This document shows positions 4,711 to 29,639 of a stretch of 33,248 nucleotides of DNA, in pieces (the first letter of the stretch is position 1; each line of letters opens with the position of its first letter). Under the pieces are notes generated by a model. The model saw only the letters and a list, made by a program, of their open reading frames with translations, was not told where the DNA came from and made no database searches. The position numbers and the translations under genes were made by a program. The DNA is taken from positions 1-33,248 of the IMG/VR virus record IMGVR_UViG_3300029240_000028. One strand, given 5' to 3'. The stretch is from a virus.

Positions 4711-5258
4711 AAACAAAGTTGATTGGCAATTACTTAAGAAAATCTAGAAATGAGGATGGAAACCTAGAAATAACATTTGAATTAACTGAGCCAATATACG
4801 AATCATACGCTCAGACACTTGAAAAAGGGGCATATAGCGTGATTATAGATTCGGTTAAACATTTACGTACGAATGAACAAAATCGGCTTATGTGGCATTT
4901 AATAAAGGAAATATGCAGTAATGAAAACGCAAGTTATAACGATACATGGGATATGTACTGCGAATTTCTAAGAATGGCAAAGCAAAAGTATACATATGTA
5001 TCAGTTTTAAAAGATGGCGTTGATTCGTTGGCTCAAGCTCATGGAGTTAGAGCGGTACAAATATTGGGCACTGAGATAAGAGACAATGGAAATGAATTTG
5101 TGAATTGTAGATTGTTTCTAGGCTCATCACAAATGGACACAAAGCAAATGGGGATATTAATTGACTGCATACTAGATTATGCAGAACAATTAGGAATCAG
5201 TACTCAATATTATTTAGATAAAGGAATCAAGGTGGAAGAAAATAAAATTTGTAATTAA
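4707..5258 (+). CDS. ninB: NinB/Orf-family recombination mediator
   Basis: RTNEQNRLMWHLIKEIC and GSSQMDTKQMGILIDCILDYAEQLGI parallel lambda Orf RSLDQNRKLWACLGDVS and QSTSRM..EFAELLELIQAFG, recalled from memory. The TTG start overlaps the upstream stop as TTGA. Confidence 0.6.
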   Translation: MKTKLIGNYLRKSRNEDGNLEITFELTEPIYESYAQTLEKGAYSVIIDSVKHLRTNEQNRLMWHLIKEICSNENASYNDTWDMYCEFLRMAKQKYTYVSVLKDGVDSLAQAHGVRAVQILGTEIRDNGNEFVNCRLFLGSSQMDTKQMGILIDCILDYAEQLGISTQYYLDKGIKVEENKICN

Positions 5259-5619
5259 AGGAAAACTAGATGGATTAAATGAATATATTAGAGCTTGCAG
5301 AGCAAATCGTTACAAGGGAGCAGAAATGGTAAAAAAGAACGAGCGTCTTGTAATTGCTTATATCTTACAGGCAGTGAATTTCGGTGAAGTTTACGAAGTT
5401 AAAAACTACCCAATTAAATTAAATATTAATTGGTATGAACAAGACAACAGAAGGGATATAGACAACATAACATTTGCAACTAAATTCATTCAAGATTCAT
5501 TAGTTAGAACAGGAATTTTAGAAGATGATTCACGTAAATACATTAATCAAGTGAATCATACAGTATTCACAGATAAAAAAAATCCAAGGATAGAGGTAGA
5601 AATTCTAGGGGGTGATTAG
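5242..5619 (+). CDS. rusA: RusA-like Holliday junction resolvase, proposed ATA start
   Basis: KFVIKGKLDGLNEYI...RRDIDNITFATKFIQDSLVRTGILEDDS. The frame is open from 5218, with no ATG/GTG/TTG before 5326. ATA 5242 lies 6 nt after AGGTGG (5230-5235). The track ORF at 5326 lacks the conserved N-terminal strand. Confidence 0.75.
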   Translation: MKFVIKGKLDGLNEYIRACRANRYKGAEMVKKNERLVIAYILQAVNFGEVYEVKNYPIKLNINWYEQDNRRDIDNITFATKFIQDSLVRTGILEDDSRKYINQVNHTVFTDKKNPRIEVEILGGD

Positions 5620-7796: not shown

Positions 7797-8208
7797 ATAT
7801 CAAAAAGCTATTGAAGTAATAGATACATTACTTCACTTAATGTGTGGAGAAGAAAGAGAAGATGGATATAAGCCGACTATGGAAGAAATGTCTAATTCTA
7901 TGGATTGGTTAAAAGATTTAGCTAATAAAGCAGAATCATTTGAATGGATTCCTGTTTCTGAAAAGCTTCCAAATGAGCATGATAGTGTATTTGCTAAATC
8001 GTATGGAACAGATAAATGGAACAATATGTTTTGGAGAACAACATCAAATAGAGTGATTGCAACAATTAAATATAATGACGGTACGGTAATTGTTAAAGAG
8101 GCATTTACTCATGATGGGGAATGGACTGTCGAGAAGAAAAACATAAACTGTAAAGTTATAGCATGGATGCCATTACCAAATCCATACAAGGAGAAAGAAA
8201 ATGAATAG
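7789..8208 (+). CDS. DUF551-domain protein
   Basis: FEWIPVSEKLPNEHDSV is the DUF551 hallmark. The N-terminal module is shared with the 7485 protein. Confidence 0.65.
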   Translation: MNKYQKAIEVIDTLLHLMCGEEREDGYKPTMEEMSNSMDWLKDLANKAESFEWIPVSEKLPNEHDSVFAKSYGTDKWNNMFWRTTSNRVIATIKYNDGTVIVKEAFTHDGEWTVEKKNINCKVIAWMPLPNPYKEKENE

Positions 8209-8383
8209 TAAGCACGCAGATAGATGGGAAGAATTACGCCAAAAAAATCCACGTCTAGCAATGGAATATTTAAGAATTTACACCACTATGGAGAAAGCTC
8301 AAAAGCATTTTAATAATTTTAAAAAAGATTGTAACGATTGGCTAGATAATATTTATAAGGATGGAGTGAAAGAAAATGATTAA
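8201..8383 (+). CDS. Hypothetical protein
   Basis: 60-aa ORF with AAGGAGAA SD. Confidence 0.55.
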   Translation: MNSKHADRWEELRQKNPRLAMEYLRIYTTMEKAQKHFNNFKKDCNDWLDNIYKDGVKEND

Positions 8384-8858
8384 TGTAGCAGTAATAGCAG
8401 GGCACTTAACTAAAGATGTTGAACTATCAAAAACACAAAACGGAAATAGCGTAGCAAAGTTTACGGTAGCAGTAAATGGATACAATGATACTACAGATTT
8501 TATTAATTGTGTAGCATGGAATAAATTGGCAGATATTGTAAATATGTATTGCAAGAAAGGCGATTTAGTTACGGTTGAAGGAAGAATCAGTGTTAGAAAT
8601 TATGAGAATCAACAAGGACAAAGAATTTATATCACTGAAGTGGTGGCTAGTAACGTGCAATTACCGCCTAAAAACGTTTCTAATGGGCAAAATTTCAGTT
8701 CTAATGTAAATGCATATCAATATCCAAACCAAGCAAATAGCAACGCTTACGGCGTTCAAAACACATATACGCAACCTAGCTTAACACAACAAATTGCACA
8801 ACAAGAATATAATGGTGGAAGTGATTTAGAAATTGCTTCAGATGATTTACCATTCTAG
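8376..8858 (+). CDS. ssb: Single-stranded DNA-binding protein
   Basis: OB-fold signature INVAVIAGHLTKDVEL...FINCVAWNKLA...GDLVTVEGRI, a Q/N-rich linker, and the acidic C-terminal tip DDLPF. Confidence 0.95.
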   Translation: MINVAVIAGHLTKDVELSKTQNGNSVAKFTVAVNGYNDTTDFINCVAWNKLADIVNMYCKKGDLVTVEGRISVRNYENQQGQRIYITEVVASNVQLPPKNVSNGQNFSSNVNAYQYPNQANSNAYGVQNTYTQPSLTQQIAQQEYNGGSDLEIASDDLPF

Positions 8859-8870
8859 GAGGTGGCTTTA

Positions 8871-9065
8871 ATAGAAATGAATTATGAAGAAAGGATTAAA
8901 GATTTAATTTCTAAAAACAACAGATTAGGAAGGACGAATATTCAGTTAATTCAAAAGATTAAAGAAAAAGATGAAACAATACACAATCAAACTTTAGAAT
9001 TGAGGCAATTAAGAAATAAAGTTGGTGAATTAGAAGATAGATTGATGAGGATGTATGTATCATGA
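8871..9065 (+). CDS. Small coiled-coil protein (start is ATA 8871 or ATG 8877)
   Basis: GGAGG at 8858-8862. ATA 8871 is 8 nt downstream and ATG 8877 is 14 nt downstream. Confidence 0.55.
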   Translation: MEMNYEERIKDLISKNNRLGRTNIQLIQKIKEKDETIHNQTLELRQLRNKVGELEDRLMRMYVS

Positions 9066-9388
9066 GCACATATGAAGATGTTAAAAGACACTTCTTGTGT
9101 GAATGTAAAAGCTACACTTATTATGAGCAGAGAATAGCAGAGCTACAAAGGGATGAAGCTATTTATCCTTTAAAAGCCGAGCTATTCTTAGCTCATGCAG
9201 ATTATGCAAGAAGAATGAATTATGTAAAAGACAAATTAAGCCAACTTGATGATACAACTCGAACAATGATTGAGTATAGATATATAAAAGGATTCAGTGC
9301 AGAAAAGACATCTAATATTGTAGGTTATGCAAGAGAAGAAATCCCAAGAAAGATAAACAAGAATTTAAAGAAAGTGCTCACAATGTGA
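9062..9388 (+). CDS. ArpU/RinA-like late-gene regulator (sigma-70 region-4-like HTH)
   Basis: C-terminal IEYRYIKGFSAEKTSNIVGYAREEIPRKINKNLKKV resembles sigma region 4. It sits at the early/late boundary. Confidence 0.55.
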   Translation: MSTYEDVKRHFLCECKSYTYYEQRIAELQRDEAIYPLKAELFLAHADYARRMNYVKDKLSQLDDTTRTMIEYRYIKGFSAEKTSNIVGYAREEIPRKINKNLKKVLTM

Positions 9389-9397
9389 GCATTTTTT
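9375..9397 (+). terminator. Intrinsic terminator overlapping the stop codon of the late-regulator gene
   Basis: TGCTCAC aat GTGAGCA forms a perfect 7-bp stem with a 3-nt loop, followed by TTTTTT. Confidence 0.7.
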
Positions 9398-9414
9398 CAT
9401 GTAATAATTGTTTT

Positions 9415-9490
9415 AGCAGGATAGAGCAGTAGTAGCTCACTAGTCTTATTAGCTAGAGGTCGAATGGTGCAAATCCTTCTCCTGCAACCA
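9415..9490 (+). tRNA. tRNA with anticodon UAU (reads AUA), initiator-like acceptor and D stems, encoded CCA
   Basis: Hand-folded cloverleaf. Acceptor AGCAGGA/TCCTGCA with an A1xA72 mismatch. D stem GAGC/GCTC. Anticodon stem CTAGT/GCTAG. Loop CTTATTA, with anticodon TAT at 9447-9449. Variable loop AGGTC. T arm GAA(T)GG-TGCAAAT-CCTTC with one bulge or mismatch. Ends ACCA. Confidence 0.7.
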
Positions 9491-9570
9491 TGATTACAAA
9501 GCCTATCAGTAAGTCCTTCCCAAATTAGATATTAAATACCAACAATGGCATACAATTAGGCTTTTATATT

Positions 9571-9596
9571 ACCGAGCGTTTGTCTCGGTTCTTTTA
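9571..9596 (+). terminator. Intrinsic terminator downstream of the tRNA
   Basis: ACCGAG cgtttgt CTCGGT followed by TCTTTT. Confidence 0.65.
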
Positions 9597-9613
9597 ATAA
9601 TAAGGAGGAGAAT

Positions 9614-9859
9614 ATGGGTTCAAAAGAATTTCAAGAATTAGCAATGAATGCAGTATTTCAAGTGAATCCAAATATTGCAATCAGTGAAATGTTCGTTGTA
9701 TGGATGGTTAAAGTGCTTCAAAACAATAAAGCATTGATTAGTGCTCAAAGTACAGACAATTACTATGAGGTAACGTATAACGGCGATAAAAAGGAATTAT
9801 ACGTTGATGAATACATAAAGAATACAAATACTTGTTTAAACGTAAATGACGCTCTATGA
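9614..9859 (+). CDS. Hypothetical protein (DUF6275-like)
   Basis: 81 aa with AAGGAGGAG SD. VVWMVKVLQNNKALISA..YYEVTYNGDKKELYVDEY resembles a conserved Firmicutes-phage family, recalled from memory. Confidence 0.65.
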   Translation: MGSKEFQELAMNAVFQVNPNIAISEMFVVWMVKVLQNNKALISAQSTDNYYEVTYNGDKKELYVDEYIKNTNTCLNVNDAL

Positions 9860-9879
9860 GTTTAAAAGGAGGGAGAATA

Positions 9880-10462
9880 ATGAACATTGTTGAAAAAAGA
9901 TTAAATGAGCTAAAACCTTATGAGAATAACCCTAGAATCAATGATGGAGCAGTGAAATTTGTTAAAAAATTCTATTGAGGAATTCGGTTTCAAAGTCCCT
10001 ATTGTTATTGATAAAAATGGAGTGATTGTTGCAGGTCATACACGATATAAAGCTAGTCAAGAATTAGGCTTAGAAACTGTTCCTTGCGTGGTTGCAGATG
10101 ATTTAACAGATGAGCAAGTAAAAGCATTTAGAATTGCAGATAATAAAACGGCAGAAAAAGCTTCATGGGATTTAGACGCATTAAAGACAGAAATGGAAGA
10201 GCTAGAAGAAATTGACGGAATCGATATGAGAGATTTTGGATTCGGCGATTTTGAAATTAGTGCACTAACTGAGGATATGGAAGCAGAAGGATACGATAAT
10301 GAGCTTATGGACGCATTTAGCGAACATTCAGAAGAAATGCTAAAAAAACAACGTGTAATCATTACATATGAAACAGAGGAAGAACAACTATTCTTAGAGA
10401 AACTTTTACAGGTAACTGAATTAAAAGTGTGCTACGACATCAAGGAATTAATGCATGAATAA
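9880..10462 (+). pseudogene. ParB-like nuclease-domain gene interrupted by a +1 frameshift in an A6 run (9964-9969)
   Basis: Frame 1 gives MNIVEKRLNELKPYENNPRINDGAVKFVKK and stops at 9976. Frame 2 continues KNSIEEFGFKVPIVIDKNGVIVAGHTRYKAS...AFRIADNK. Removing one A restores a canonical ParB-N domain. Confidence 0.75.
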
Positions 10463-10511
10463 TATCTATTATGCAATAGCTTAATTATTAAAAGAAAATG
10501 GAGGATATAAG

Positions 10512-11819
10512 GTGAATAAAATTAGTGAGACTTATCAATCACCAAGATGGACAGGAGAAATCGCAGATTGCTCATTACCAGTAACATTTGATACATATTC
10601 CAACTGTTCATTTGGATGTGTTTATTGTTTTAGCCAATATCAAAGAGGCATTGGTGCAAGTAAAGAAGCATATCTTAATAAAGATGTGAAATGTATCAAT
10701 GTTGAGAAGTGTAAAAAGATTTTCAGTGGAGAAGATACAAAATCACAATTCTATAAATACATTAAAGACAGACGTCCTATTCAATATGGTGGATTATCAG
10801 ACCAATTCGACGGATACGAAAAGAAATATGGTAAAACCTATGAAATGCTCAAGTATTTGAAATCTATTAACTATCCTATTTGTTTTAGCACGAAATCGGC
10901 ATGGGTATTTAACGACCCTAAATATCAAGAATTATTCAAAGGTGCAGATAATTGGAATGTTAAGTTTAGTATCATCACACTAGATGAAGAGGACGCAAGA
11001 AAAATTGAAGTAGGTGTACCAAGTCCAAGAAAAAGACTTGAAGCAATGAAAAAATATACTGAATTATCAAAAGGTGGTGCAACTTTAAGGTTACGTCCAT
11101 TTATTGTAGGAGTTTCAGATAAAACCTATCTAGATTTAATTAGAGAAGCCAAAAAGGCAGGAGCAACGGCAGTTACTACGGAGTTCTTTTGCTTAGAAAT
11201 GCGCTCTATTAAACAAGCTAAGGAGCATTATGATGTGATTAGTGAATGTGCAGGATTTGATATTGTAGATTTCTATCGAAAACATTCAAATGGAAGTGGA
11301 TATTTAAGACTTAACAGAAAAGTAAAGGCTAAATACATTCAAAAGATGAAAGAGTTATGTGATGAATTAGGCATGAGATTCTATGTATCAGACGCACACT
11401 TTAAAGAATGCTCGAATAACTGTTGTTGTTGCGCATTAGACAAGAATTGGGATTACTCAAGAGGAAACTTTAGTGGAGCTTTACAAATTGCAAAGAAACA
11501 TGGAAGAGTACATTGGAAAGATATTGAAAAGGATATGTACTTCTTAGACTTTGAACGTAACAAAGCAATTGGCTTTAATACAAATACATCAGAAACTAGA
11601 GCAAAATATGCAGGAATGACAATGAAGGATTATCTGCATTATTTATGGAATTCACCAAAAGCAGGACAATCACCTTACAAGATTTTTGAGAAAGTCTTAA
11701 AGCCTGTAGGATTTGATGAAAATAATGACATCATTTATGAATACGATAATTCAGTAACATTCTTAAAAAGAACAGAGGAGATTACAGAACTTGAAACAGA
11801 AGAAGCAAGACATGTCTAG
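10512..11819 (+). CDS. Radical SAM enzyme (SplB/COG1533-like architecture), function unknown
   Basis: CX3CX2C motif NCSFGCVYCF near the N-terminus. 435 aa. GTG start after GGAGGA. Confidence 0.75.
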   Translation: MNKISETYQSPRWTGEIADCSLPVTFDTYSNCSFGCVYCFSQYQRGIGASKEAYLNKDVKCINVEKCKKIFSGEDTKSQFYKYIKDRRPIQYGGLSDQFDGYEKKYGKTYEMLKYLKSINYPICFSTKSAWVFNDPKYQELFKGADNWNVKFSIITLDEEDARKIEVGVPSPRKRLEAMKKYTELSKGGATLRLRPFIVGVSDKTYLDLIREAKKAGATAVTTEFFCLEMRSIKQAKEHYDVISECAGFDIVDFYRKHSNGSGYLRLNRKVKAKYIQKMKELCDELGMRFYVSDAHFKECSNNCCCCALDKNWDYSRGNFSGALQIAKKHGRVHWKDIEKDMYFLDFERNKAIGFNTNTSETRAKYAGMTMKDYLHYLWNSPKAGQSPYKIFEKVLKPVGFDENNDIIYEYDNSVTFLKRTEEITELETEEARHV

Positions 11820-11961
11820 AGAAGAACATTTACGCCAAATGAAAAGCGTTGAAGAAGAATTAGAAAACACGACATCAGAATACAGAAAAAGAGATTTAAG
11901 AAAAAGATTGCAAAGGCTTAAAAAGCAATTGAATCAATATGATTGTTATAGGGGGTATTAA
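11812..11961 (+). CDS. Small basic coiled-coil protein (49 aa, below the track cutoff)
   Basis: ATG 11812 overlaps the radical-SAM stop. MSREEHLRQMKSVEEELENTTSEYRKRDLRKRLQRLKKQLNQYDCYRGY. Confidence 0.45.
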   Translation: MSREEHLRQMKSVEEELENTTSEYRKRDLRKRLQRLKKQLNQYDCYRGY

Positions 11962-11962
11962 A

Positions 11963-12304
11963 ATAGCAGAGAAACACGCAGGAGGACGTCCAAGGATAAA
12001 GATTGATTATGAAGCAGTTGAAAAGCTTGCTTCTATTGGATGTACTCAAGAAGAAATTGCAGATTTTCTAGGATGTTCAGTAAGAACATTATTAAGAAAT
12101 AAAAAGTTTTGTCAGACATATAAAAGAGGTATAAGCCACTCAAAAAGAAGTTTAAGACGTATGCAGTTTGACAAAGCGTCAAAAGGGAATACGACCATGC
12201 TTATTTGGTTAGGTAAACAAATGCTTGGACAGAGAGAAAAGGTTGAACAAACAATGACACACGAGATTGAGGACCTAACACCTTTGGCAGATTTATTGAA
12301 ATGA
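11963..12304 (+). CDS. terS: Terminase small subunit (HTH type), proposed ATA start
   Basis: AEKHAGGRPRIKIDYEAVEKLASIGCTQEEIADFLGCSVRTL...NTTMLIWLGKQMLGQRE. ATA GCA at 11963 lies 7 nt after GGGGG (11951-11955). The alternative ATG 11939 has no SD. Confidence 0.8.
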   Translation: MAEKHAGGRPRIKIDYEAVEKLASIGCTQEEIADFLGCSVRTLLRNKKFCQTYKRGISHSKRSLRRMQFDKASKGNTTMLIWLGKQMLGQREKVEQTMTHEIEDLTPLADLLK

Positions 12305-13641: not shown

Positions 13642-15045
13642 ATAGAAACATCTAACACACGTAATCCGTGGTTTCAGAATTACCTAAACGATAGAGGGTA
13701 TTATGTAGATACAAACGCAATTGAGATTATTGAATTGTGTAATAAGTGGTATACAAATACCGAAACAGAATTTCATACGGCATACACCTTGAACAATGAG
13801 GAATACACGCTAGACAAGACAGATTTTGCAAAGCGTTTATGCGAGGATGATGCAAACCTTATTGAAATCTTGGATATAAACGCAACAGAGGACAGTACAA
13901 CAAATGATATTATTTCAGACATTCTAACAAAGAATAGATTTGATGTAATGTACAGAAAACAAGTTGAGCAAATGTCTGCAAACGGAACAGTAGGTGCTTA
14001 TGTAACGGTATCAAATGCCGAGATTTATGAAGATGGTACATTCAGTGGAGGAGAAATCAGAATCAACTATTGTGATTCAATGAATATCCTTCCATTGACT
14101 GTTATCAATGATGAAATCGTTGAGGTAGCTTTCGTTGGAGTAAATTATGAAAAATTAAAAAAAGTATATGTGATGGTCATGTTCTTAAAAGGGCAAGATG
14201 AAAGATATATTGCAGAAACACATTACTTTAAAGATACAGGCGAAGAAATAAAAGAGCGTGCTCAGATTGTTCAACTAGATGTTGTAAAGCCGTTTGCAAT
14301 TATGAGAAATGCAAAGGTCAATAACTTACAAATGCAAGGGTACGGCTTACCGAAGATTTGGAGCGCAATCGCTCCACTAAAAACAATTGATTTAACAATG
14401 ACAATGTGGAATCGTGATTTGTTGAAATCAGATAAAATCGTTCTTGTGAATGAAGCATTAATGCAGAAAGACGAGAATGGAAAGATTAAGATGAATCCAC
14501 AAATGAAAAAGATATTTGTTCAGTTAGGTAGAGATAAGCTTCCGGAAGAAAAAGCTTTATGGCAAGAATATAATCCAACAGTAAGAACGGCAGAAGTTGT
14601 TCAATCACTAGAAACTGCGTTAAGTATCTTATCTATGATGTTTGGATTTGGTACAAAGAAATATACGTTTGAAAGTGGAAGAATCGTAACGGCTACAGAA
14701 TATATCGGTGAGAATCAAGACGCAATGAAGGAAGTTAACTCACAACGTAAAGAATCTACTGCATATATTCAAGATATCATTCAAGCAATAGCGTACTTCT
14801 ATGAATTGACACAAGGCAGAAAGCTTAATATCAATTCATTAGACATTGCTATTGATTATGATGATACATACATTGAAGATAAACAAAGCACTGCACAAGC
14901 GTTAAGGAATGACGCATTAACATTTGATATTCCAAGATTGAAGATTATGTATTTTATGAAGCAATACGGCTTTACTGAAGAAGAAGCAACGGAGTTATTA
15001 AATGAAGAAATTCAAGATGATGGAGAGGAGGATGAAGAAGAATAG
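13642..15045 (+). CDS. Portal protein (SPP1 Gp6-like), proposed ATA start
   Basis: The frame opens at 13639, right after the TerL stop. ATA 13642 lies 6 nt after GGAGG (13631-13635). The N-terminus NPWFQNYLNDRGYYVDTNAIEIIELCNKWY is portal-like, and the first canonical start is TTG 13735. Confidence 0.9.
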   Translation: METSNTRNPWFQNYLNDRGYYVDTNAIEIIELCNKWYTNTETEFHTAYTLNNEEYTLDKTDFAKRLCEDDANLIEILDINATEDSTTNDIISDILTKNRFDVMYRKQVEQMSANGTVGAYVTVSNAEIYEDGTFSGGEIRINYCDSMNILPLTVINDEIVEVAFVGVNYEKLKKVYVMVMFLKGQDERYIAETHYFKDTGEEIKERAQIVQLDVVKPFAIMRNAKVNNLQMQGYGLPKIWSAIAPLKTIDLTMTMWNRDLLKSDKIVLVNEALMQKDENGKIKMNPQMKKIFVQLGRDKLPEEKALWQEYNPTVRTAEVVQSLETALSILSMMFGFGTKKYTFESGRIVTATEYIGENQDAMKEVNSQRKESTAYIQDIIQAIAYFYELTQGRKLNINSLDIAIDYDDTYIEDKQSTAQALRNDALTFDIPRLKIMYFMKQYGFTEEEATELLNEEIQDDGEEDEEE

Positions 15046-15851
15046 CAACTACATATTTTCCATTCGTCTCAAGAAATGGCGATAGATTAGTACTATATGA
15101 CGCTTTCAGAAGATTATTCTCAAGCTACTTTACGAATGGCGTATTCGTTGATGATTCTAGTTCGGACCATTTAAGAGTTGAGAAAGCTCAAGGCTTAACA
15201 TTAACAGTTAAAGCAGGACGAGCAAATATTAATGGAGCGTTCTATTGGCAGAAAGATGACGAAACCATCACACTAGAAAAGAATAACGCAACTAAAAGTT
15301 ACAATATCATTCTTAGATTGAATGATAATGACGCATACAGAAATATCACATTGATTGCTAGTGATATCAATGATGGAATCACAAGAAGTGATTCTATTTA
15401 TGATTTAGTGTTAGCTACAGTTACGGTTACAGGCAATGCAAGTGAAGTAAAAGGTTCAGATATTACAGATACAAGACTAGATTCTACACGTTGTGGAGCA
15501 GTTACAAGCGCAATTAAAAGCGTACAATCGTTGGATTTGTTCACTCAAGTTACTGAGCTATTCAAAGAAATTAAGGCTCAGAATGAATCTGAAATGAACG
15601 CAAATAGAACGGAATTTAATGATTGGTTTGAAACTGTAAAAGATACGTTAGACGCAAATACGGCAGGAAAACTATCTAACAGAATTTCAAACATTGAAAA
15701 GATGATTATGGAGAATCACTTTACTACGATTCTATTAACCGAAGATGGAACGTTAGTAGATGAGAATGGGCATGAGATTCTAGCGGATTGGGCGTATGAA
15801 GTTGATGACGGTGAAGTAGGCAAAGATTGGTCTTACAAGGTGAAATCATGA
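15042..15851 (+). CDS. Tail-fibre-like structural protein, proposed ATA start
   Basis: ATA GCA at 15042 overlaps the portal stop as ATAG, with GAGGAGG 10 nt upstream. About 92 codons (ATTYFPFVSRNGDR...) precede the first canonical start, TTG 15318. Confidence 0.8.
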   Translation: MATTYFPFVSRNGDRLVLYDAFRRLFSSYFTNGVFVDDSSSDHLRVEKAQGLTLTVKAGRANINGAFYWQKDDETITLEKNNATKSYNIILRLNDNDAYRNITLIASDINDGITRSDSIYDLVLATVTVTGNASEVKGSDITDTRLDSTRCGAVTSAIKSVQSLDLFTQVTELFKEIKAQNESEMNANRTEFNDWFETVKDTLDANTAGKLSNRISNIEKMIMENHFTTILLTEDGTLVDENGHEILADWAYEVDDGEVGKDWSYKVKS

Positions 15852-16484: not shown

Positions 16485-17093
16485 ATAGCTATTGAATATT
16501 TAGATAAGAGTGGATTGACGCTCTTAATCAGTAAAATTAAATCGGCGTTAGGTGGGAAAGTTGATGTTGAAATTGGTAAAGGCTTATCAACAAATGACTA
16601 CACAAGCGCAGAAAAACAAAAGTTAAGTGGTATCGCAAATGGTGCTCAAGTGAACGTGATTGAGTCGGTAAAGGTAAATGGTACGAAGTTAACGCCAAGC
16701 TCAAAAGCCGTAGATGTTACAGTACCGACAAAGACATCGCAATTAACGAATGACAGTGGATATCAGTCGGCAACGAGCGTTGAGTCAATTATCACGGCTA
16801 AAGGGTATCAAACGCAATCACAAGTACAATCGTTGATTAATTCGGCAGTAGGTAATATTACATCAATTAGATATGAAAAGGTAACAAGCTTACCTGCTAC
16901 AGGTTCAAATGGTGTTATTTATTTGGTTGCACATTCACATGGAACGCAAGATATTTATGATGAATATATTTGGTTATCAGAAACTAAAACATTTGAAAAG
17001 ATTGGTAATACAGACATTGATTTATCGGCATATGTTAAGAAATCAGAATTAACGGCGATTACAACAAACGATTTAAACACAATGTGGGGTTAG
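16485..17093 (+). CDS. Tail-fibre protein, proposed ATA start
   Basis: ATA GCT at 16485 lies 7 nt after GGAGG (16473-16477). The N-terminus AIEYLDKSGLTLLISKIK and the motif GKGLSTNDYTSAEKQKLSGI are fibre motifs. The first canonical start is TTG 16515. Confidence 0.8.
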   Translation: MAIEYLDKSGLTLLISKIKSALGGKVDVEIGKGLSTNDYTSAEKQKLSGIANGAQVNVIESVKVNGTKLTPSSKAVDVTVPTKTSQLTNDSGYQSATSVESIITAKGYQTQSQVQSLINSAVGNITSIRYEKVTSLPATGSNGVIYLVAHSHGTQDIYDEYIWLSETKTFEKIGNTDIDLSAYVKKSELTAITTNDLNTMWG

Positions 17094-20668: not shown

Positions 20669-21538
20669 ATACCAAATGAAATTGCGTTAGCTAAAACGTA
20701 TGTCTCAAATTTGGATGAGGTATATAAGTTAGCATCAGTAACAGGTGATTTAAATGCAGACGCTACAATGGTAAGAGCAGGAGCGAACGCAAAAGAAATC
20801 ATCTATCCACAAATTTCTGTTAAAGGTTTAGGAAACTATGATAGAAATAGTGGTTATACATCTAACTCAGTGAAATTAGAATGGAAAACTGCAACATTTG
20901 ACTACGATAGAGGAACTAAAATCTCAGTTGATACACAAGACAATGCAGAATCAATGAATATTGCGTTCGGTAGAGCAGGAGCGGAATTAATGCGTACAAA
21001 GGTTGCACCGGAAGCAGACGCTTACACATTCGCTAAGATTGCAGGCACAACAGGAATCACAAAAGTTTCAGAAGATTATGCAAGTGCAGAAGAGTTCTTG
21101 AGTGCATTATTAAAAGCAGTTACTAAAATGGATGAGGATGAAGTGCCAAGTGAACAACGTATCTTGTATTCTACTCCTACATTATTGAATAGCGTTAAAG
21201 CTTTAGATACTTACAAATCACGTGAAGCTTTACAAGGATTCGCAAAGGTAGTTCCTGTACCTGCTAGTCGTTTCTATACAAAGATTAAATTGTTGAGTGG
21301 AGCAGATACAGAAGAAGAAGGTGGATATACTAAAGCAGAGGATGGACACGTTATCAACTTCTTGATTGTTCATAAACCTTCTGTTATGAAATGGGATAAA
21401 CACATTGTTTCAAATGTAATTCCTGCAAGCAATAACATTGAATCAGATTCAGATGTATTGAAATATCGTAAGTATGGAATCGTTGATGTATACGCAAATA
21501 AGGTAGCAGGTATTTACTTATCTGCTAGTGCGAAGTAA
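20669..21538 (+). CDS. Major capsid protein, proposed ATA start
   Basis: The frame opens at 20666. ATA 20669 lies 9 nt after GGAGG (20655-20659). The N-terminus PNEIALAKTYVSNLDEVYKLAS.T and the later GLGNYDRNSGY ... FDYDRG motifs are typical. The first canonical start is TTG 20711, which has no SD. Confidence 0.85.
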   Translation: MPNEIALAKTYVSNLDEVYKLASVTGDLNADATMVRAGANAKEIIYPQISVKGLGNYDRNSGYTSNSVKLEWKTATFDYDRGTKISVDTQDNAESMNIAFGRAGAELMRTKVAPEADAYTFAKIAGTTGITKVSEDYASAEEFLSALLKAVTKMDEDEVPSEQRILYSTPTLLNSVKALDTYKSREALQGFAKVVPVPASRFYTKIKLLSGADTEEEGGYTKAEDGHVINFLIVHKPSVMKWDKHIVSNVIPASNNIESDSDVLKYRKYGIVDVYANKVAGIYLSASAK

Positions 21539-22007: not shown

Positions 22008-22423
22008 CAGGATTCTTTGAGGATTCAATTACACTTGTAAATCACTACTATGATACATTGACGAGAGAAGATAGGTTTCAAGCTTCTATCCTTGATAAAT
22101 GTATGTGGAGACAATCTACTGTTAGAACTGCAAACGGTAATATTCTGAGCATAGCCACATCCACAAATATTACCATTCTATATCGTGAGGGATATGTTGA
22201 ACCTTACGAATATGCAAAGCTTTCAAATGATGAGAAACAAAAGCACTTCACATTAAATACAGATAAAACAGATTTCGTATTCTTTGGAGAAGTCGAAGAA
22301 GATTTATCTAACATCAAGGCAATCAATGAAGCTAAAAAGAAATACAAATGGACAACGATTCAAAGCGTAACAGATTGTACGAATGTCGATATGTTGAAGC
22401 ATTGGGAGGTTGTCGGTCAATAG
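22004..22423 (+). CDS. Minor capsid / head-tail joining protein (Minor_capsid_1-like)
   Basis: ATG 22004 overlaps the upstream stop. Call based on position and size. Confidence 0.6.
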   Translation: MTGFFEDSITLVNHYYDTLTREDRFQASILDKCMWRQSTVRTANGNILSIATSTNITILYREGYVEPYEYAKLSNDEKQKHFTLNTDKTDFVFFGEVEEDLSNIKAINEAKKKYKWTTIQSVTDCTNVDMLKHWEVVGQ

Positions 22424-22782: not shown

Positions 22783-23198
22783 CAGTATCAAAAGCATTGA
22801 TTCAATGGCTATACGGCTACGGAAATATACAGATAGATGAACGTATTGAAACGGATGTTTTAGCGCAACAAGCTATCTCTTATGCATTGTATAAAGAACC
22901 TAATGCAATTGTAGATACATACATTGACGGTTCTCAAATGCGTACAGAATACTATACATTTCTAGCACGTAGGAATACACAAATCGAAGCCGAAAGGCAA
23001 GACAACAATTCCTTTTTAGAAGAATTGGAAGAATGGATTGACGAAAAGAATTTAAATGGAGAATTACCACAACTAGACGGAAACAGACATTGTGATGATG
23101 TTTCCGTTTCAAGTGGTTTATATCTATACACAAATGAGGATAGTCAAGCAGTATATGCGTTAACTATTCAAATCAAATACAGAAAGGAGCTTAATTAA
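22779..23198 (+). CDS. Minor_capsid_3-like / tail completion protein
   Basis: ATGA overlap with the upstream gene. 139 aa. Position before the major tail gene. Confidence 0.6.
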   Translation: MTVSKALIQWLYGYGNIQIDERIETDVLAQQAISYALYKEPNAIVDTYIDGSQMRTEYYTFLARRNTQIEAERQDNNSFLEELEEWIDEKNLNGELPQLDGNRHCDDVSVSSGLYLYTNEDSQAVYALTIQIKYRKELN

Positions 23199-23704
23199 TA
23201 GCAACTCAAGGAACTGAAGTAACTACAGGACAGACAGTCAAGAAGTATATGATTGGATTGTTCTTACAAATGGGAGAAGGTTACAAGCGAATTAAAAAGT
23301 CTACAACTTTAGATATTTCATTCAATAGTGAAACTGAAACGTATGACTTTATCGCAGATAAGAACCCAACAGAATCATTAAAGAGTTATTCACCTCAGAT
23401 TTCGCAAGATTTAACAATGATTAAAGGCGAAGATGACTTTGAATACATTTACGAACAAATGATGAAATCCGTACCAAACAACGAAGAAGTAAATACAAAA
23501 GCTTTACTTGTATTCATGTTTGACGGAGACAAAACAAAAGGCTATAAAGCGTGGGAAGTTGACGCTAAATTGATTTTCGACACATTGAGTGGCGTCGATT
23601 CAAAAATCAACTTCAACATTAACTTTGCAAGTGATATTCGTGTCGGTACTGCAAAGGTAGCAGATGGAACAGTAACATTTACAGAAGGTACATCAGAAGT
23701 ATAA
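23198..23704 (+). CDS. Major tail protein, proposed ATA start
   Basis: ATA GCA at 23198 overlaps the upstream stop as TAATA and lies 8 nt after AAAGGAG (23183-23189). The track start ATG 23249 has no SD. Confidence 0.75.
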   Translation: MATQGTEVTTGQTVKKYMIGLFLQMGEGYKRIKKSTTLDISFNSETETYDFIADKNPTESLKSYSPQISQDLTMIKGEDDFEYIYEQMMKSVPNNEEVNTKALLVFMFDGDKTKGYKAWEVDAKLIFDTLSGVDSKINFNINFASDIRVGTAKVADGTVTFTEGTSEV

Positions 23705-24665: not shown

Positions 24666-27245
24666 ATATCAGACGGAACATTAAAGTTTGATACAAAGAT
24701 AGACACAAGTGGTCTAGAGAATGGTATTAAATCTGTAAAGGTTGTATCAAGTGAAGCCACAAATGCTATCAAAGATACTTCAAAAGCGATTGATAAGCTA
24801 GGTTCTGATGGTTCAAAAGCACCGCCAAAAATTAAAGATAAACTTAAAGATTTAAATGATGAGCAAAAGAATACACAAACAGAAACGCAAGAAACAGGTT
24901 CAAAGTTTGATGTATTTAAACAAGTAGGAAGCAGTGCCTTAGAGTCAATTCAAGGTGGATTTGACGGACTATTAGGAAAGATTCAGAATATTAGTCCGGA
25001 AGCTACTGCAATCACTGAAACTTTAACAGGTTTAGGCGTTGGAGGTGTCGTTGGTGTCACTGCCGTAGCAGGAGCTATCGGTGGTATGGCACTAGCTATT
25101 AAAACAGGTGTTAATCAAGCTATGGAACTAGATGACGCTATGGCTAAATTCCAAGCTCAAACAGGTGCTTCAAGCAATGAAATGAATAAATTTAAAAACA
25201 TTGCTCGTGATGTTTGGTCAAACAATTTCGGCGAAAATGTTTCAGACGTAGCCGATATGATGGCACGTGTCAAACAACAAATGCAAGGTATAAGTGATGT
25301 CGATTTAAAGAATGTAACTGAGGATTTATTGACATTAAGAGACACATTCGGAATGGACGAGAACGAAACATTAAGAGGTGCTCAACAATTAATGAAGCAG
25401 TTCGGAATTACTTCTCAAGAAGCTTTTGACCTTATGGCTACAGGTGCTCAGAATGGTTTGAATAAGTCGGATGAATTAGGCGATAACATTTCGGAATACT
25501 CCGGTAAATTTGCTCAAGCAGGATATTCGGCAAAAGAATATTTCCAATTAATGCAAAATGGTTTAGATGGTGGAGCTTATAACCTTGATAAAGTTAACGA
25601 CGCAATCAATGAAGTTACCACAAGGTTAGTTGATGGAACTATCGAAGGAGCTTTAGATAGTTTTGATATCAAGACGCAAGATGTATTTAAGGCTTGGCAA
25701 GAAGGAAGAGCAACTCAGAAAGATGTTGTAAATGCGATTGTAGAAGATATTTCAAAGACTACAAATGAGCAAGAAAAGTTGAATAAATCGGCAACGGCTT
25801 TCGGTACAATGGGAGAAGATTTCAACGCCGGATTTATTGAATCCTTAACTACGGTAGGAAATAAATATAAAGATGTAGAAGGAGCAATGGATAAAGTCAA
25901 AGATATTGCAAATGGTGGCTTAAAGAACGCTTTAAGTGGCTTAGGACGTACATTTCTTGATTCATTTACTCCAATAGGCGAACTTATTACCCCTATTCTT
26001 GCAGGTATCATCGGATTAATTACAGTAGCTATACAAGGTATTCAACAAGGATTTGCTAAAGTTGGTGAAGTTATTTCAAGTGTATTAAGTAAGATTGATA
26101 CAAGTGGAATTACAGAATTAACAAGTCAAGTTTCCGAAGTGTTAGCTCCTGCGTTTGATGAGGTAAAAAAAGCGATTGACGAAATGAAAGTTGCACTTGA
26201 GCCTATTGCAAAAGAAATTTTAGGTAAAATTGGTAACGCAATTCAAAATGTTGTTAACCAAGCTCAAAAGATTCTTAGCGTTGTAGGACCACCGATTCTA
26301 GCAATTATTAAGAAGATTATTCAAACAGTTATCGGCATGATTCCTGTAATAACATCTATCCTTCAAATTGTGGGAAGTGTGGTAAGTGGAATCATTTCAT
26401 TTATAACTATGGTTGTGACGTATGTAGGAACTGCGATTGCAACTATACTTGGATTTATCATGCCTATTGTTCAAATCGTAGCTACAATTGTAGCGAATAT
26501 TTGGTCTGTAATATTAACGGTTGCTCAGAATATTTGGAGTAAGGTTAGTGAAATAGTTACTGCAATTATTGGATTCGTAAGCAATTTGTTTAAAACAGTT
26601 TCGGACATCATAAACAATATTTGGAGCAAGATTCAAGATACAATGAACAGAGTAGGAGATAAAGTTAAAGGCGTTATTGATAATATCAATAAATATTTCA
26701 ATAATGTTAAGAGTACTGTTTCTGATGTATTTAATGGCATTTGGTCTAAAGTTCAAGATGTCATGGACAATGTAGGAAATAAAATTTCAAATGTTCTACA
26801 AGGAATACAGAATGCATGGAGCGGTTTAAAAGGGTTTGTAGGTGGTGTATTCAGTGGAATTGAAGGAGCAGTTAGTTCATTAGTTGGAAGTGTAAAAGGA
26901 ATGGTAAATGGAGTTATCGGTGGCATTAACGGCGCAATCGGTATCATCAATAAGATTCCCGGAGTTCACATTGGAAAGATTCCAAGACTAGAGCGTGGTG
27001 GTGTATTGAAGCGTGGTCAGATTGGTTTGTTGGAAGGTAACGGAGCAGAAGCAGTCGTACCATTAGAAAAAAATAAAGCGTGGATTCGTGCCGTTGCTAA
27101 AGATATGGCTCAAATCATGCCTAGCGTAACAACAAATAACAATGGACAGACTATCAACTTCTACAATAAAGTTCAAAGTCCGGATGAAATCGCTAGAATG
27201 TTACGTATGCAAGCAAGATATGGATATGGAGGTGTAGTTCAATAG
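24666..27245 (+). CDS. Tape measure protein, proposed ATA start (859 aa)
   Basis: An in-frame TGA at 24663 is immediately followed by ATA 24666, 8-11 nt after AAAGGAGGTGG. SDGTLKFDTKIDTSGLENG is a typical tape-measure N-terminus. There are 140 open codons with no ATG/GTG/TTG before the track start at 25086. Confidence 0.9.
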   Translation: MSDGTLKFDTKIDTSGLENGIKSVKVVSSEATNAIKDTSKAIDKLGSDGSKAPPKIKDKLKDLNDEQKNTQTETQETGSKFDVFKQVGSSALESIQGGFDGLLGKIQNISPEATAITETLTGLGVGGVVGVTAVAGAIGGMALAIKTGVNQAMELDDAMAKFQAQTGASSNEMNKFKNIARDVWSNNFGENVSDVADMMARVKQQMQGISDVDLKNVTEDLLTLRDTFGMDENETLRGAQQLMKQFGITSQEAFDLMATGAQNGLNKSDELGDNISEYSGKFAQAGYSAKEYFQLMQNGLDGGAYNLDKVNDAINEVTTRLVDGTIEGALDSFDIKTQDVFKAWQEGRATQKDVVNAIVEDISKTTNEQEKLNKSATAFGTMGEDFNAGFIESLTTVGNKYKDVEGAMDKVKDIANGGLKNALSGLGRTFLDSFTPIGELITPILAGIIGLITVAIQGIQQGFAKVGEVISSVLSKIDTSGITELTSQVSEVLAPAFDEVKKAIDEMKVALEPIAKEILGKIGNAIQNVVNQAQKILSVVGPPILAIIKKIIQTVIGMIPVITSILQIVGSVVSGIISFITMVVTYVGTAIATILGFIMPIVQIVATIVANIWSVILTVAQNIWSKVSEIVTAIIGFVSNLFKTVSDIINNIWSKIQDTMNRVGDKVKGVIDNINKYFNNVKSTVSDVFNGIWSKVQDVMDNVGNKISNVLQGIQNAWSGLKGFVGGVFSGIEGAVSSLVGSVKGMVNGVIGGINGAIGIINKIPGVHIGKIPRLERGGVLKRGQIGLLEGNGAEAVVPLEKNKAWIRAVAKDMAQIMPSVTTNNNGQTINFYNKVQSPDEIARMLRMQARYGYGGVVQ

Positions 27246-28111
27246 ATATCAATAAGGTAAGAGTTATCGTCCGTAGGGATGATGGCAAAGAATTTGAAAT
27301 CGACAACAAAAGATGGAGAATACCATCTAGTGATGGTTTAGATGGATTTGATTATGTAGCACCTTCATATACAACACAAGACAATGCATTCGGAAACGGT
27401 GCTAGATTAATCGGTTCACGTATTCCAACAAAAGAAAGAAGTGTGAAAGCTACCTTTAAAGGCTCGCTAGAAGAAAAAAGAGAAGAAAGGGAGAAGCTAC
27501 GGCGCTTCTTCCAATATTCTCATGTATTTGATGTGATAGTTGAGTATATGGGAGAAAAGAAATATTGCAGAGGAAGACTATATGCGTATAGCTTGCCTAC
27601 CGTTAATATCTACAAAGATTTAGAGCTTAACTTTACGATTCTATGCACGCAACCTTTATTGCTTTCATTTGATGATTTCGCAAGGAATATCGCAGAAATT
27701 GGTGAAGGTTTAGCGTTCAATTTTGAAATACCGGAAACAGGCGTAAACTTTGGAACGTTTACATTCGCTAGAGAAATCTATATTGATAATCAAGGCGATA
27801 CAGAAACATACTGTAGAGCCGTTATTGAAGCGTTTGGAGAGGTTACAAATCCGAAACTATTCAACAAAGATAAATATATTCGTGTATTAGATACGCTACA
27901 CAATGGTGATGTGTTAGAAATTGATTTAGTTTCTGAGCCTATTTCGATTAAAAAAAATGGTGTGAATTGTATAGGCAAAGTAGACAGAACCTCATCATTC
28001 AATGATATGACGATTCAGTTAGGCGAGAATATCATAGGATACACGGCAGACAATGGAGATACGAACCTAGCTTGTACGGTTTATTACAATGAAAGGTATT
28101 TAGGTTTATAG
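27242..28111 (+). CDS. Distal tail protein (Dit), proposed ATA start
   Basis: ATA 27242 overlaps the tape-measure stop as ATAG and lies 9 nt after GGAGG (27228-27232). There are 67 open codons without a canonical start before GTG 27443. Confidence 0.8.
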   Translation: MDINKVRVIVRRDDGKEFEIDNKRWRIPSSDGLDGFDYVAPSYTTQDNAFGNGARLIGSRIPTKERSVKATFKGSLEEKREEREKLRRFFQYSHVFDVIVEYMGEKKYCRGRLYAYSLPTVNIYKDLELNFTILCTQPLLLSFDDFARNIAEIGEGLAFNFEIPETGVNFGTFTFAREIYIDNQGDTETYCRAVIEAFGEVTNPKLFNKDKYIRVLDTLHNGDVLEIDLVSEPISIKKNGVNCIGKVDRTSSFNDMTIQLGENIIGYTADNGDTNLACTVYYNERYLGL

Positions 28112-29138: not shown

Positions 29139-29639
29139 ATAGAAAAGAAAAATGGAGGATTTAAACAAATAACAAGAAGTATGTATTTTCTAGACAAGAT
29201 GAATGCAATTGGTGGTGTAGCCGTTGCCGTATTAACATACGTATTAGGTGAGCATTGGTATTTATTTGCGTTCTTCTTATTTATGAACGTCGTGGATTAT
29301 ATTACAGGGTGCATGAAGTCGGCGATTAATCACAAAATCAATAGCAATAAAGGATGGATTGGAGTCCTTAAAAAGCTAGGCTATTGGATTATGATTGTAG
29401 TTGCGTTCACGTTCAGTGCATTCTTGGTAGAGATTGGAAAAATGCTAGGAATTGATTTCCATGTAACTACATTATTAGGTTGGTTTGTATTGGCTTCTTT
29501 ATGTATTAATGAAGTGCGTAGCATTATTGAGAACCTTGTACAATGTGGATATAGTGTGCCTAGTGTATTAACTAAAGGTTTGGAAGTAGCGGATAAAATC
29601 GTTAACGAAGACAATGACGAATCAAGTACCTTGGAATAA
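29139..29639 (+). CDS. Holin (toxin-secretion/phage-lysis holin family), probable ATA start
   Basis: Multi-TM protein with NVVDYITG and LCINEVRSIIEN motifs. ATA 29139 lies 8 nt after AAGGAG. The track start GTG 29130 lies inside that SD, and the internal ATG has no good SD. Confidence 0.75.
   Translation: MEKKNGGFKQITRSMYFLDKMNAIGGVAVAVLTYVLGEHWYLFAFFLFMNVVDYITGCMKSAINHKINSNKGWIGVLKKLGYWIMIVVAFTFSAFLVEIGKMLGIDFHVTTLLGWFVLASLCINEVRSIIENLVQCGYSVPSVLTKGLEVADKIVNEDNDESSTLE

Follow-up and report, generated by a model that had tools for sequence, protein, structure and literature searches.

A candidate phage initiator tRNA with a UAU anticodon and its association with ATA start codons

Does a phage that begins many of its genes with ATA bring along the initiator tRNA that reads this codon? 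The question is raised by a tRNA gene at positions 9415-9490 of the IMG/VR virus record IMGVR_UViG_3300029240_000028, the whole stretch of which (33,248 nucleotides) is called the window below. A first-pass annotation of this sequence had proposed that the tRNA, whose anticodon is UAU, is a dedicated initiator for the ATA starts of the phage, and every sequence-level prediction of that proposal that we examined came out in its favour. Judged from sequence, the gene probably encodes a functional initiator tRNA of the tRNAfMet type, with the anticodon changed from CAU to UAU, that would read AUA.

Structure and family of the UAU tRNA

The gene and its anticodon are located as follows.

9415-9490, plus strand: putative initiator-type tRNA gene with anticodon UAU, 76 nt, CCA encoded (RF00005 match, covariance model R1, covariation)
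9447-9449, plus strand: anticodon TAT (UAU), complementary to AUA, in the 7-nt loop CTTATTA (9445-9451)

The Rfam family RF00005 matched 9415-9487 over its full length (model positions 1-71) with 48.8 bits (gathering score 29, E 1.1e-7), and this was the sole RNA family match in the whole window, which agrees with the earlier statement that the window holds only one tRNA. The 5' half consists of AGCAGGA (positions 1-7), TA, the D-stem strand GAGC (10-13), a 7-nt D loop AGTAGTA without GG, the strand GCTC (22-25) and A26. The anticodon arm follows with CTAGT (27-31), the loop CTTATTA, which includes U37, and GCTAG (39-43); its pairs 29:41, 30:40 and 31:39 are A:U, G:C and U.G. After the variable loop AGGTC come the T stem GAA-T-GG/CCTTC with a one-base bulge, the T loop TGCAAAT, the 3' strand TCCTGCA (66-72), A73 and CCA. 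The initiator determinants present are A1xA72, G2:C71, C3:G70, A73, A11:U24 and G30:C40. All structural details given in the first-pass annotation, namely the cloverleaf, the ACCA end, the anticodon, the stems and loops and the irregular T arm, could be read in the sequence.

Relatives were gathered by a large-terminase search of viral contigs (50 loci, terminase 45-99% identical), and further lineages by pattern scans of viral and metagenome contigs. The UAU tRNA was found in more than 100 viral and metagenome contigs as 12 distinct sequences, which fall into seven types, A to G, the window tRNA being type A; metagenome matches with a source stated in the record name all came from human gut assemblies. 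The CTTATTA loop was identical in all relatives found through the terminase, a search that is independent of the loop sequence. Over the 12 variants, standard pairs occupied 94% of the pair cells, compared with 38-58% in a control in which the 3' partners were slid by 1-3 columns, and compensatory changes were seen at eight stem pairs, of which the acceptor and anticodon stems contribute three each and the T stem two. Position 1:72 was unpaired in all 12 (A.A, G.A or C.A, base 1 never being U), while G2:C71, C3:G70, A73, A11:U24 within the GAGC/GCTC stem and G30:C40 were invariant. Type E has the classical C1xA72 within CGC...GCAACCA. In the anticodon stem, 29:41 was A:U or G:C, 30:40 always G:C and 31:39 U.G except for one C:G; types B and D to G read G:C, G:C and U.G at these three pairs. 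Types C to G have a D loop with GG and a T loop of TTCGATT, TTCAAAT or TTCAATT.

It should be pointed out that the window type carries G18->A in the D loop together with U55->G in the T loop (9431-9434 and 9468-9470), while types C to G keep G18 and U55. As read from the sequence, the pair of changes may be a compensatory co-change of the tertiary contact at the elbow.

The unusual D loop, T loop and T stem, together with the lack of an ARAGORN call and a weak fold z-score, could be taken as signs of a decaying pseudogene or a functionless attachment-site remnant. The chance of this is close to nil. Phages whose terminases are only 64-66% identical still share 89-100% identity over the 116-nt tRNA region, the compensatory changes extend over eight stem pairs, and the odd elbow belongs to one variant of several, types C to G being regular. 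Moreover, no integrase-sized gene adjoins the tRNA, which is flanked by a regulator and packaging genes.

Established work assigns two effects to the 1:72 mismatch in combination with pairs 2:71 and 3:70: the tRNA is formylated, and EF-Tu does not bind it (PMC5389676; PMC11744186). Pairs 2:71 and 3:70 are formyltransferase determinants (PMC5389676). Among the three G:C pairs of the anticodon stem, G30:C40 is the sole essential and sufficient one in E. coli, and natural initiators of the au/GC/gu kind exist (PMC5389676). Because this sufficient pair never varies in the family, the missing run of three G:C pairs does not refute an initiator. Compared with a bacterial initiator, the UAU tRNAs share the 1:72 mismatch, G2:C71, C3:G70, A73, A11:U24 and the overall similarity, but lack the three consecutive G:C pairs and the CAU anticodon, UAU being present in every member. 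Compared with an elongator tRNA-Ile(UAU), they share the anticodon, but not the Watson-Crick 1:72 pair, the purine at position 37 or the elongator-type D stem.

A covariance model, R1, took as its training set 30 CAU initiator-like tRNAs of phages, with no UAU and no E. coli sequence among them. It scored E. coli tRNAfMet at 87.3 bits, UAU types D, E and F at 81-82 bits, type B at 73.9, type C at 72.1 and the window tRNA at 71.0. The best elongator, an ARAGORN-called tRNA-Thr in locus L106, reached 52.6 bits, and E. coli tRNA-Ile(GAU), tRNA-Ile(CAU) and elongator tRNA-Met received 50.9, 40.9 and 29.2 bits, so that the window tRNA stands about 20 and 30 bits above the two isoleucine tRNAs. Together with the 1:72 mismatch in every variant, these scores sustain the initiator-type body that had been claimed. 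Covariance models did not class the tRNA as an ordinary elongator or a pseudogene, the outcome that the first-pass annotation had named as speaking against its proposal.

The same resemblance was found in a BLAST search with type B against all 5426 complete E. coli genomes, the best matches being annotated as tRNA-Met, at a median of 4 places per genome. E. coli has four initiator tRNA genes. One match that was examined is a tRNA upstream of rimP, which we take to be metY; types B and D share with this tRNAfMet the identical runs GTAGCTCGTCGG, CCGAAGGTCG and GCAACCA, and type B is 77% identical to metY. Elongators have a pyrimidine at position 11 and a purine at 24, and the E. coli elongators in our alignment have a GCTC/GAGC D stem with C11:G24, where the window tRNA has A11:U24.

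It could be argued that the gene encodes an ordinary elongator tRNA-Ile(UAU), which would serve the rare AUA codons inside genes independently of the lysidine-modified tRNA-Ile2 of the host. AUA and AGG are classic rare codons, and many phage tRNAs supplement rare codons. ARAGORN labels three relatives (L007, L019 and L039) as tRNA-Ile(tat), and ATA makes up 1.35% of the internal codons and 18% of the isoleucine codons of the window and aligns with isoleucine. We regard this explanation as improbable. The ARAGORN label rests on the anticodon alone, the R1 score lies well above those of the E. coli isoleucine tRNAs, and A11:U24 differs from the C11:G24 of elongators. Elongators that read ANN codons carry a purine at position 37 (t6A37), where the window tRNA has U37. 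An elongator would also leave the ATA starts and their co-occurrence with the tRNA, described below, without explanation. Finally, the 1:72 mismatch found in all variants blocks EF-Tu binding in E. coli (PMC11744186).

A dual role, with initiation at AUA and elongation at internal AUA codons, has to be weighed as well. ATA is used both ways in the genome, and A1xA72 and G1xA72 differ from the classical C1xA72 and may have a different effect on EF-Tu binding in the host. However, the features that speak against an elongator apply equally here and no sequence feature specific to elongation was found, which makes a dual role very improbable.

ATA start codons and their link to the tRNA

Openers were counted as codons lying 5-10 nt after a GGAGG-type Shine-Dalgarno (SD) sequence, with an open reading frame of at least 60 codons and at most 12 codons from the upstream stop. 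On this count the window has ATG 13 times, ATA 9, TTA 5, AAT 4, GTG 3 and ATT 2. The ATA starts are followed by typical second codons (GCA, CCA, TCA, GAA, AAA), and most ATA genes have strong SD sites of 6-8 nt. Our gene model of the window (57 genes) contains 38 ATG, 13 ATA, 3 GTG and 3 TTG starts; ATA is used by 10 of the 34 genes after the tRNA and by 3 of the 23 before it. The ATA genes that bear on the question are listed below with their PHROG profile matches and the codon found in relatives.

5242-5619, plus strand: RusA-like resolvase, early gene, ATA start; PHROG match at residues 2-122, first ATG/GTG/TTG at residue 29, ATA in 29 of 29 relatives
8871-9065, plus strand: small gene, SD AGGAGGTG then ATA; ATA in 58 of 58 relatives, start uncertain with an ATG two codons downstream
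13642-15045, plus strand: portal, SD AAGGAGGT then ATA; phrog_533 reaches residue 22, first canonical start at residue 32, ATA in 52 of 52 relatives
15042-15851, plus strand: head protein, ATA overlapping the portal stop as ATAG; phrog_1220 at residues 3-224, first canonical start at residue 93, ATA in 50 of 50
16485-17093, plus strand: structural-module gene, ATA start; residues 4-200 match phrog_24103 positions 4-195 of 197, relatives ATA 20 and ATG 5
20669-21538, plus strand: major head protein, SD AAGGAGG then ATA; residues 3-288 match phrog_422 positions 3-294 of 297, first canonical start at residue 15, ATA in 38 of 38
23198-23704, plus strand: gene at the major tail protein position, ATA start; residues 10-167 match phrog_3099 positions 4-169 of 171, first ATG at residue 18, relatives ATA 24 and ATG 1
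24666-27245, plus strand: tape measure, SD AAGGAGGT then ATA; profiles align from residue 7, first ATG/GTG/TTG at residue 141, 140 codons downstream
27242-28111, plus strand: distal tail protein (Dit), ATA overlapping the tape-measure stop as ATAG; phrog_33 from residue 20, first canonical start at residue 68
29139-29639, plus strand: holin-like gene, SD AAGGAG then ATA; alternative start at a GTG inside the SD (29130)
32252-33013, plus strand: CHAP endolysin, SD AAGGAGG then ATA; CHAP domain at residues 18-100, first ATG at residue 33

As judged from these alignments, coding of the major head protein, the head protein, the tape measure, RusA and the endolysin begins at ATA, and the ATA starts are real. 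Residues 3-140 of the endolysin are 58.7% identical to the lysin of streptococcal phage B30 and collinear with it from B30 residue 4. At position 17344 the relatives have ATA 3 times and ATG 36 times, which indicates that ATA and ATG interchange at orthologous starts. Start/stop overlaps of the form ATAG occur at 15042-15045, 22420-22423 and 27242-27245 and are the ATA counterpart of the ATGA of translationally coupled genes. Public gene calls for the window's own contig (L078) and for a near-identical ENA contig (L079) begin the ATA genes at downstream TTG, GTG or ATG codons. Because the callers start downstream, the deposited proteins lack their N-termini, and gaps are left before the portal, head, major head and other genes.

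Not every ATA that was considered has been kept. The codon at 11996 alternates between ATA and GTA in relatives and is probably internal, and 2328, 5621 and 22420 were dropped as certain starts for the ambiguity caused by in-frame canonical codons upstream, in the case of 5621 a GTG at 5612. The ATA starts cited in the first-pass annotation thus stand overall, except that 5621 is ambiguous and 11996 probably lies within a gene. Reassignment of AUA to methionine inside genes was also rejected, as internal ATA aligns with isoleucine in 57% of cases, much like ATT (51%).

A stricter count was used for comparing loci with and without the tRNA, in which the codon follows an SD and no canonical start occurs from the upstream stop to 8 codons downstream. 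The tRNA-bearing loci (718 kb) gave ATA 132, ATT 0, ATC 0 and ATG 213. Five related viral loci without the tRNA (80 kb) gave ATA 0, ATT 0, ATC 0 and ATG 25, and eighty terminase-related prophage loci (1284 kb) gave ATA 5, ATT 3, ATC 9 and ATG 289. Neither Rfam nor ARAGORN found a tRNA in the viral loci L045-L048, which belong to those without it. Apparent ATA starts in L119, L134 and L137 were rejected as ATA-ATG or ATG-ATA neighbours of ordinary ATG starts. With a second metric, 143 ATA cases were found in the 718 kb with the tRNA and 15 in 1364 kb without it (Fisher p 3e-50, a value that overstates independence because the loci are related). The link between ATA starts and the tRNA that had been proposed therefore extends to the relatives: those that bear the tRNA use ATA starts, and the related phages without it do not. 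In tRNA-bearing phages 23-38% of the starts are ATA, including those of the most abundant virion proteins; these loci span terminases 64-72% identical to that of the window, one locus has 43% G+C, and UAU types C, D, E, F and G each occur in a phage with ATA starts. Since the prophage group includes loci of 27-29% G+C, AT-richness alone is not the source of the ATA starts.

A sister tRNA with the anticodon CCU was found in 40 viral contigs. It has the window's exact acceptor stem, A1xA72, U31.G39 and U37, and A20 of its D loop is presumably an ArgRS identity element.

L313:7353-7424, minus strand: CCU sister tRNA (also in L221, L304 and L336-L372)

In the CCU phages (about 41% G+C in three contigs checked), the SD-preceded openers include AGG 19 times, the commonest non-canonical codon, and ATA twice, whereas the UAU phages have ATA 143 times and AGG once. 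In these phages a conserved 'AGG AAA...' preceded by an SD opens the genes for the portal, the head protease and the major head and tail proteins, and no SD was found before the first canonical start of the AGG-opened genes. In the major tail protein, the profile match begins at residue 4, and no canonical start occurs before residue 24. This cross-specificity, CCU with AGG and UAU with ATA, is the strongest argument that the anticodon, and not a general sloppiness of initiation, defines the start codon, and it suggests that the phenomenon is not a one-off.

Phages also carry initiator-like tRNAs that keep CAU. A scan of viral contigs with the backbone pattern, the anticodon being left free, gave at least 120 loci (L217-L335). 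At least 106 such CAU tRNAs were extracted. About 78% of these are mismatched at 1:72, and 19, among the matches listed, have U1:A72; they come from many environments, and some of the matches listed have U37 (loops CTCATTA and CTCATTC). Like the UAU tRNA they show a 7-nt D loop, AGGTCG, the GAGC/GCTC D stem and a 1:72 position that is mismatched or weakly paired, but their loci have no ATA or AGG starts above background. One of these tRNAs, in a prophage of a Ruminococcaceae metagenome-assembled genome (MAG) (L148:7093-7167), is 78% identical to the window tRNA and has G1xA72, a UGCAAAU T loop and a D loop without GG. No ATA starts were found in the L148 prophage, and from its sequence this tRNA is likely a relative of the ancestral state.

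The main rival explanation is that the CAU initiator of the host reads ATA weakly with the help of a strong SD, so that ATA attenuates translation and the UAU tRNA is unneeded, unrelated or a modest booster. In Staphylococcus aureus, infC, ccpN and citZ have AUA starts with an extended SD, and the host initiator by itself gives them about 10-30% of the output of AUG (bioRxiv 10.1101/2025.06.19.660503). Most ATA genes of the window do have a strong SD, and RusA (5242) and perhaps 5621 are early ATA genes, for which a tRNA made in a late burst would arrive too late. Because the S. aureus starts work with the host initiator alone, the tension that the first-pass annotation had seen in the early ATA genes is eased. 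The rival is nevertheless unlikely. S. aureus has only four AUA-start genes genome-wide (bioRxiv 10.1101/2025.06.19.660503), compared with the share of ATA starts given above. ATA starts are absent from related phages and prophages without the tRNA, AT-rich ones included, and from the CAU-bearing L148. The weak near-cognates ATT and ATC are unused in the tRNA-bearing loci (0, compared with 132 ATA), and anticodon and codon match exactly in both the UAU/ATA and the CCU/AGG phages. For comparison, the efficiency of the native initiator of E. coli at AUA is just 0.1-1% (PMC11744186).

Several points nevertheless weigh against a UAU initiator. ARAGORN did not call the window tRNA, and its fold energy is no better than that of shuffled sequence (z -0.96). 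The elbow of the window type is odd (D loop without GG, T loop UGCAAAU, one-base T-stem bulge), U37 is odd for any tRNA, 31:39 is U.G and not G:C, and of the three canonical G:C pairs this type has just one. The S. aureus starts imply that ATA genes can be translated without the tRNA, the host may itself use ATA starts widely, and the tRNA could act in elongation at the internal ATA codons. As the tRNA-bearing phages belong to few lineages, the co-occurrence is partly shared ancestry. The whole case, moreover, is built on sequence.

Taking both sides together, we lean, with fair rather than full confidence, towards natural orthogonal initiation systems in phages. In these, initiators with a switched anticodon (UAU for AUA, CCU for AGG) would serve starts that the host initiator reads poorly, and virion and lysis proteins would depend on the phage tRNA and begin with a residue other than methionine, probably formyl-Ile or formyl-Arg.

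Proposed mode of action and genomic setting

After infection or induction, the UAU tRNA would be made from its own small transcription unit between two terminators. A host aminoacyl-tRNA synthetase would charge it, most likely IleRS with isoleucine because of the anticodon-based identity. The IleRS of B. subtilis accepts a UAU anticodon. The host formyltransferase would recognise the 1:72 mismatch, G2:C71, C3:G70 and A73, and the mismatch would keep the tRNA off EF-Tu. The mismatch and G30:C40 would then lead it to the ribosomal P site at AUA codons lying 5-10 nt after a strong SD, while internal ATA would still be read as isoleucine by host tRNAs. The phage would in this way own a private start codon, and strong translation of its main virion and lysis genes would depend on a phage product. 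Such an arrangement might serve as a lock on late and lysis translation, give independence from the host initiator pool, or evade defences that cleave tRNAfMet. Initiators with mutated anticodons start at the cognate non-AUG codon with the amino acid dictated by the anticodon (PMC11744186), and it is because they do so that we infer host charging, formylation and initiation at SD-positioned AUA.

The tRNA gene sits in the 225-nt gap between a regulator gene and the DUF6275 gene, and its flanks contain the following elements.

9375-9397, plus strand: terminator-like hairpin TGCTCAC-AAT-GTGAGCA followed by TTTTTT, overlapping the stop codon of the upstream sigma-like gene
9400-9408, plus strand: candidate extended -10 promoter TGTAATAAT, directly after the terminator and ending 6 nt before tRNA base 1
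9498-9563, plus strand: conserved long hairpin (AAAGCCTA ... TAGGCTTT) with a loop of about 50 nt in the tRNA trailer (ViennaRNA fold)
9571-9597, plus strand: intrinsic-terminator-like site, ACCGAGCGTTTGTCTCGGT (9571-9589) followed by TCTTTT, which closes the tRNA unit

The upstream hairpin has 7 bp (9375-9391) and is conserved in tRNA types A, B, D and G. The placement of the gene between two terminators, as first annotated, holds in that terminator-like sites lie on both sides, with the reservation that the upstream one is listed by the tool on the minus strand only, its plus-strand T run being seen in the sequence. The 'late regulator' assigned to the upstream gene is plausible, but the sigma-like match of this 108-aa protein is weak (E about 1e-3). 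The promoter motif TGnNATAAT is kept among relatives, as TGCGATAAT or TGCAATAAT, whereas a promoter scan of the window did not call the motif at 9400-9408. Because the -10-like motif ends 6 nt before base 1, transcription would start at or next to the mature 5' end; the tRNA being made from this candidate promoter without a 5' leader is, as read from the sequence, speculative. The trailer hairpin occurs in 46 variants, some of which change on both arms, e.g. AAAGTTTATC/GATAGACTTT, and it may act in processing or as a small RNA.

The genome has 33 kb, about 33% G+C and a tail module of siphovirus type. Its gene order starts with a repressor-like HTH gene on the minus strand, followed on the plus strand by the early genes for ERF, a NinB-like protein, RusA, a replication protein and SSB. 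The middle part holds the small, weakly sigma-like regulator (9062-9388), DUF6275, a ParB-like nuclease, a radical SAM protein and the small and large terminase subunits. The portal, head proteins, scaffold, major head protein, connectors, tail, tape measure, Dit, Tal, the holin-like gene and the CHAP endolysin complete it. No formyltransferase, aminoacyl-tRNA synthetase, initiation factor or tRNA modifier was found among the 36 distinct window open reading frames scanned.

The gene for the radical SAM protein (10512-11819, 435 aa) has that of the ParB-like nuclease on one side and that of the small terminase subunit on the other. The protein is a member of the PA0069/Rv2578c family, which we take to be spore-photoproduct-lyase-like. 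A sequence search found no solved-structure relative of it, and nothing was found that connects its gene with the tRNA.

The window sequence matches contig Ga0495776_144877 of JGI metagenome 3300045988, and an identical terminase protein occurs on 13 contigs of JGI and ENA assemblies. No GenBank phage gave a megablast match to window positions 8000-12000, and the nearest cultured terminase, from C. difficile phages, is about 45% identical. The tRNA pattern had no match among 185,579 representative genomes. Terminase relatives in these genomes belong to mixed Clostridia MAGs; their identity is at most 56% for the full protein and at most 70% for fragments of the N-terminus. The CHAP domain of the endolysin resembles streptococcal phage lysins, with weaker matches to Erysipelotrichaceae phages; such sequence similarities may serve as a hint only to the host. 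Separately, a terminase-related contig binned as an uncultured Mycoplasma MAG carries a 'skipping-rope' RNA (RF02924, 53 bits, L129:14289-14370).

Comparison with known systems

If the proposal is true, it adds a new layer of viral control over host translation, at initiation and not by stop-codon recoding. Virion proteins whose first residue is not methionine would be expected, and for Bacillota an orthogonal initiator tRNA with its matching start codon would be available ready-made. Annotation is affected as well: with standard callers, about one gene in four of these phages is cut short or overlooked, and a phage 'tRNA-Ile(TAT)' label elsewhere may signal the same mis-annotation.

Bacterial tRNAfMet, as encoded by E. 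coli metY and metZWV, shares with the phage tRNA the 1:72 mismatch, G2:C71, C3:G70, A73, A11:U24, G30:C40, AGGTC and the GCAACCA 3' end. The phage tRNA differs from it in UAU, in U37 instead of A37, in the U.G pair at 31:39, in the 7-nt D loop and in being phage-encoded and paired with ATA starts; the window type alone differs further in the A:U pair at 29:41, the D loop without GG, the bulged T arm and the UGCAAAU loop. To our knowledge, every natural initiator tRNA carries CAU.

Laboratories have used anticodon mutants for initiation at other codons since about 1990, and synthetic biology now employs them as a tool. Engineered initiators, such as the amber CUA form, the AUC, GUC and UUC forms and the orthogonal initiators for mRNA display, likewise put a new anticodon on an initiator body and begin translation at the non-AUG codon that pairs with it. 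In the CUA mutant the amino acid is formyl-glutamine (PMC11744186). While these are laboratory constructs, the phage UAU tRNA is natural and conserved and has evolved together with dozens of matching start codons.

Suppressor tRNAs were reportedly described in stop-codon-recoded gut phages by Borges et al. 2022 and Peters et al. 2022. There too, a phage tRNA alters the meaning of a codon, mostly in late structural and lysis genes, and public callers mis-annotate the result; however, the suppressors act in elongation at stop codons, whereas the UAU tRNA would act at initiation, with internal ATA keeping its standard meaning.

Elongator tRNA-Ile(UAU) is known from bacteria without TilS, namely Mycoplasma mobile and B. 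subtilis tilS suppressors. It shares with the phage tRNA a UAU that reads AUA and probable charging by IleRS, but its body is that of an elongator, in which 1:72 is paired and position 37 is a purine, and it enters the A site with EF-Tu. The AUA starts of S. aureus also lie downstream of a strong SD, yet they are rare and attenuating and are read by the normal CAU initiator, with no dedicated UAU initiator. In mitochondria, a single tRNA-Met with a modified CAU anticodon reads both AUG and AUA, and we know of no dedicated UAU initiator there.

Full-text searches of one literature collection returned no report of a natural non-CAU initiator tRNA, from phages or elsewhere, nor of systematic ATA starts in phages. 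The constituent parts, i.e. an initiator tRNA, a phage tRNA that alters decoding and initiators engineered to read other codons, are of known kinds, while their natural combination appears to be new.

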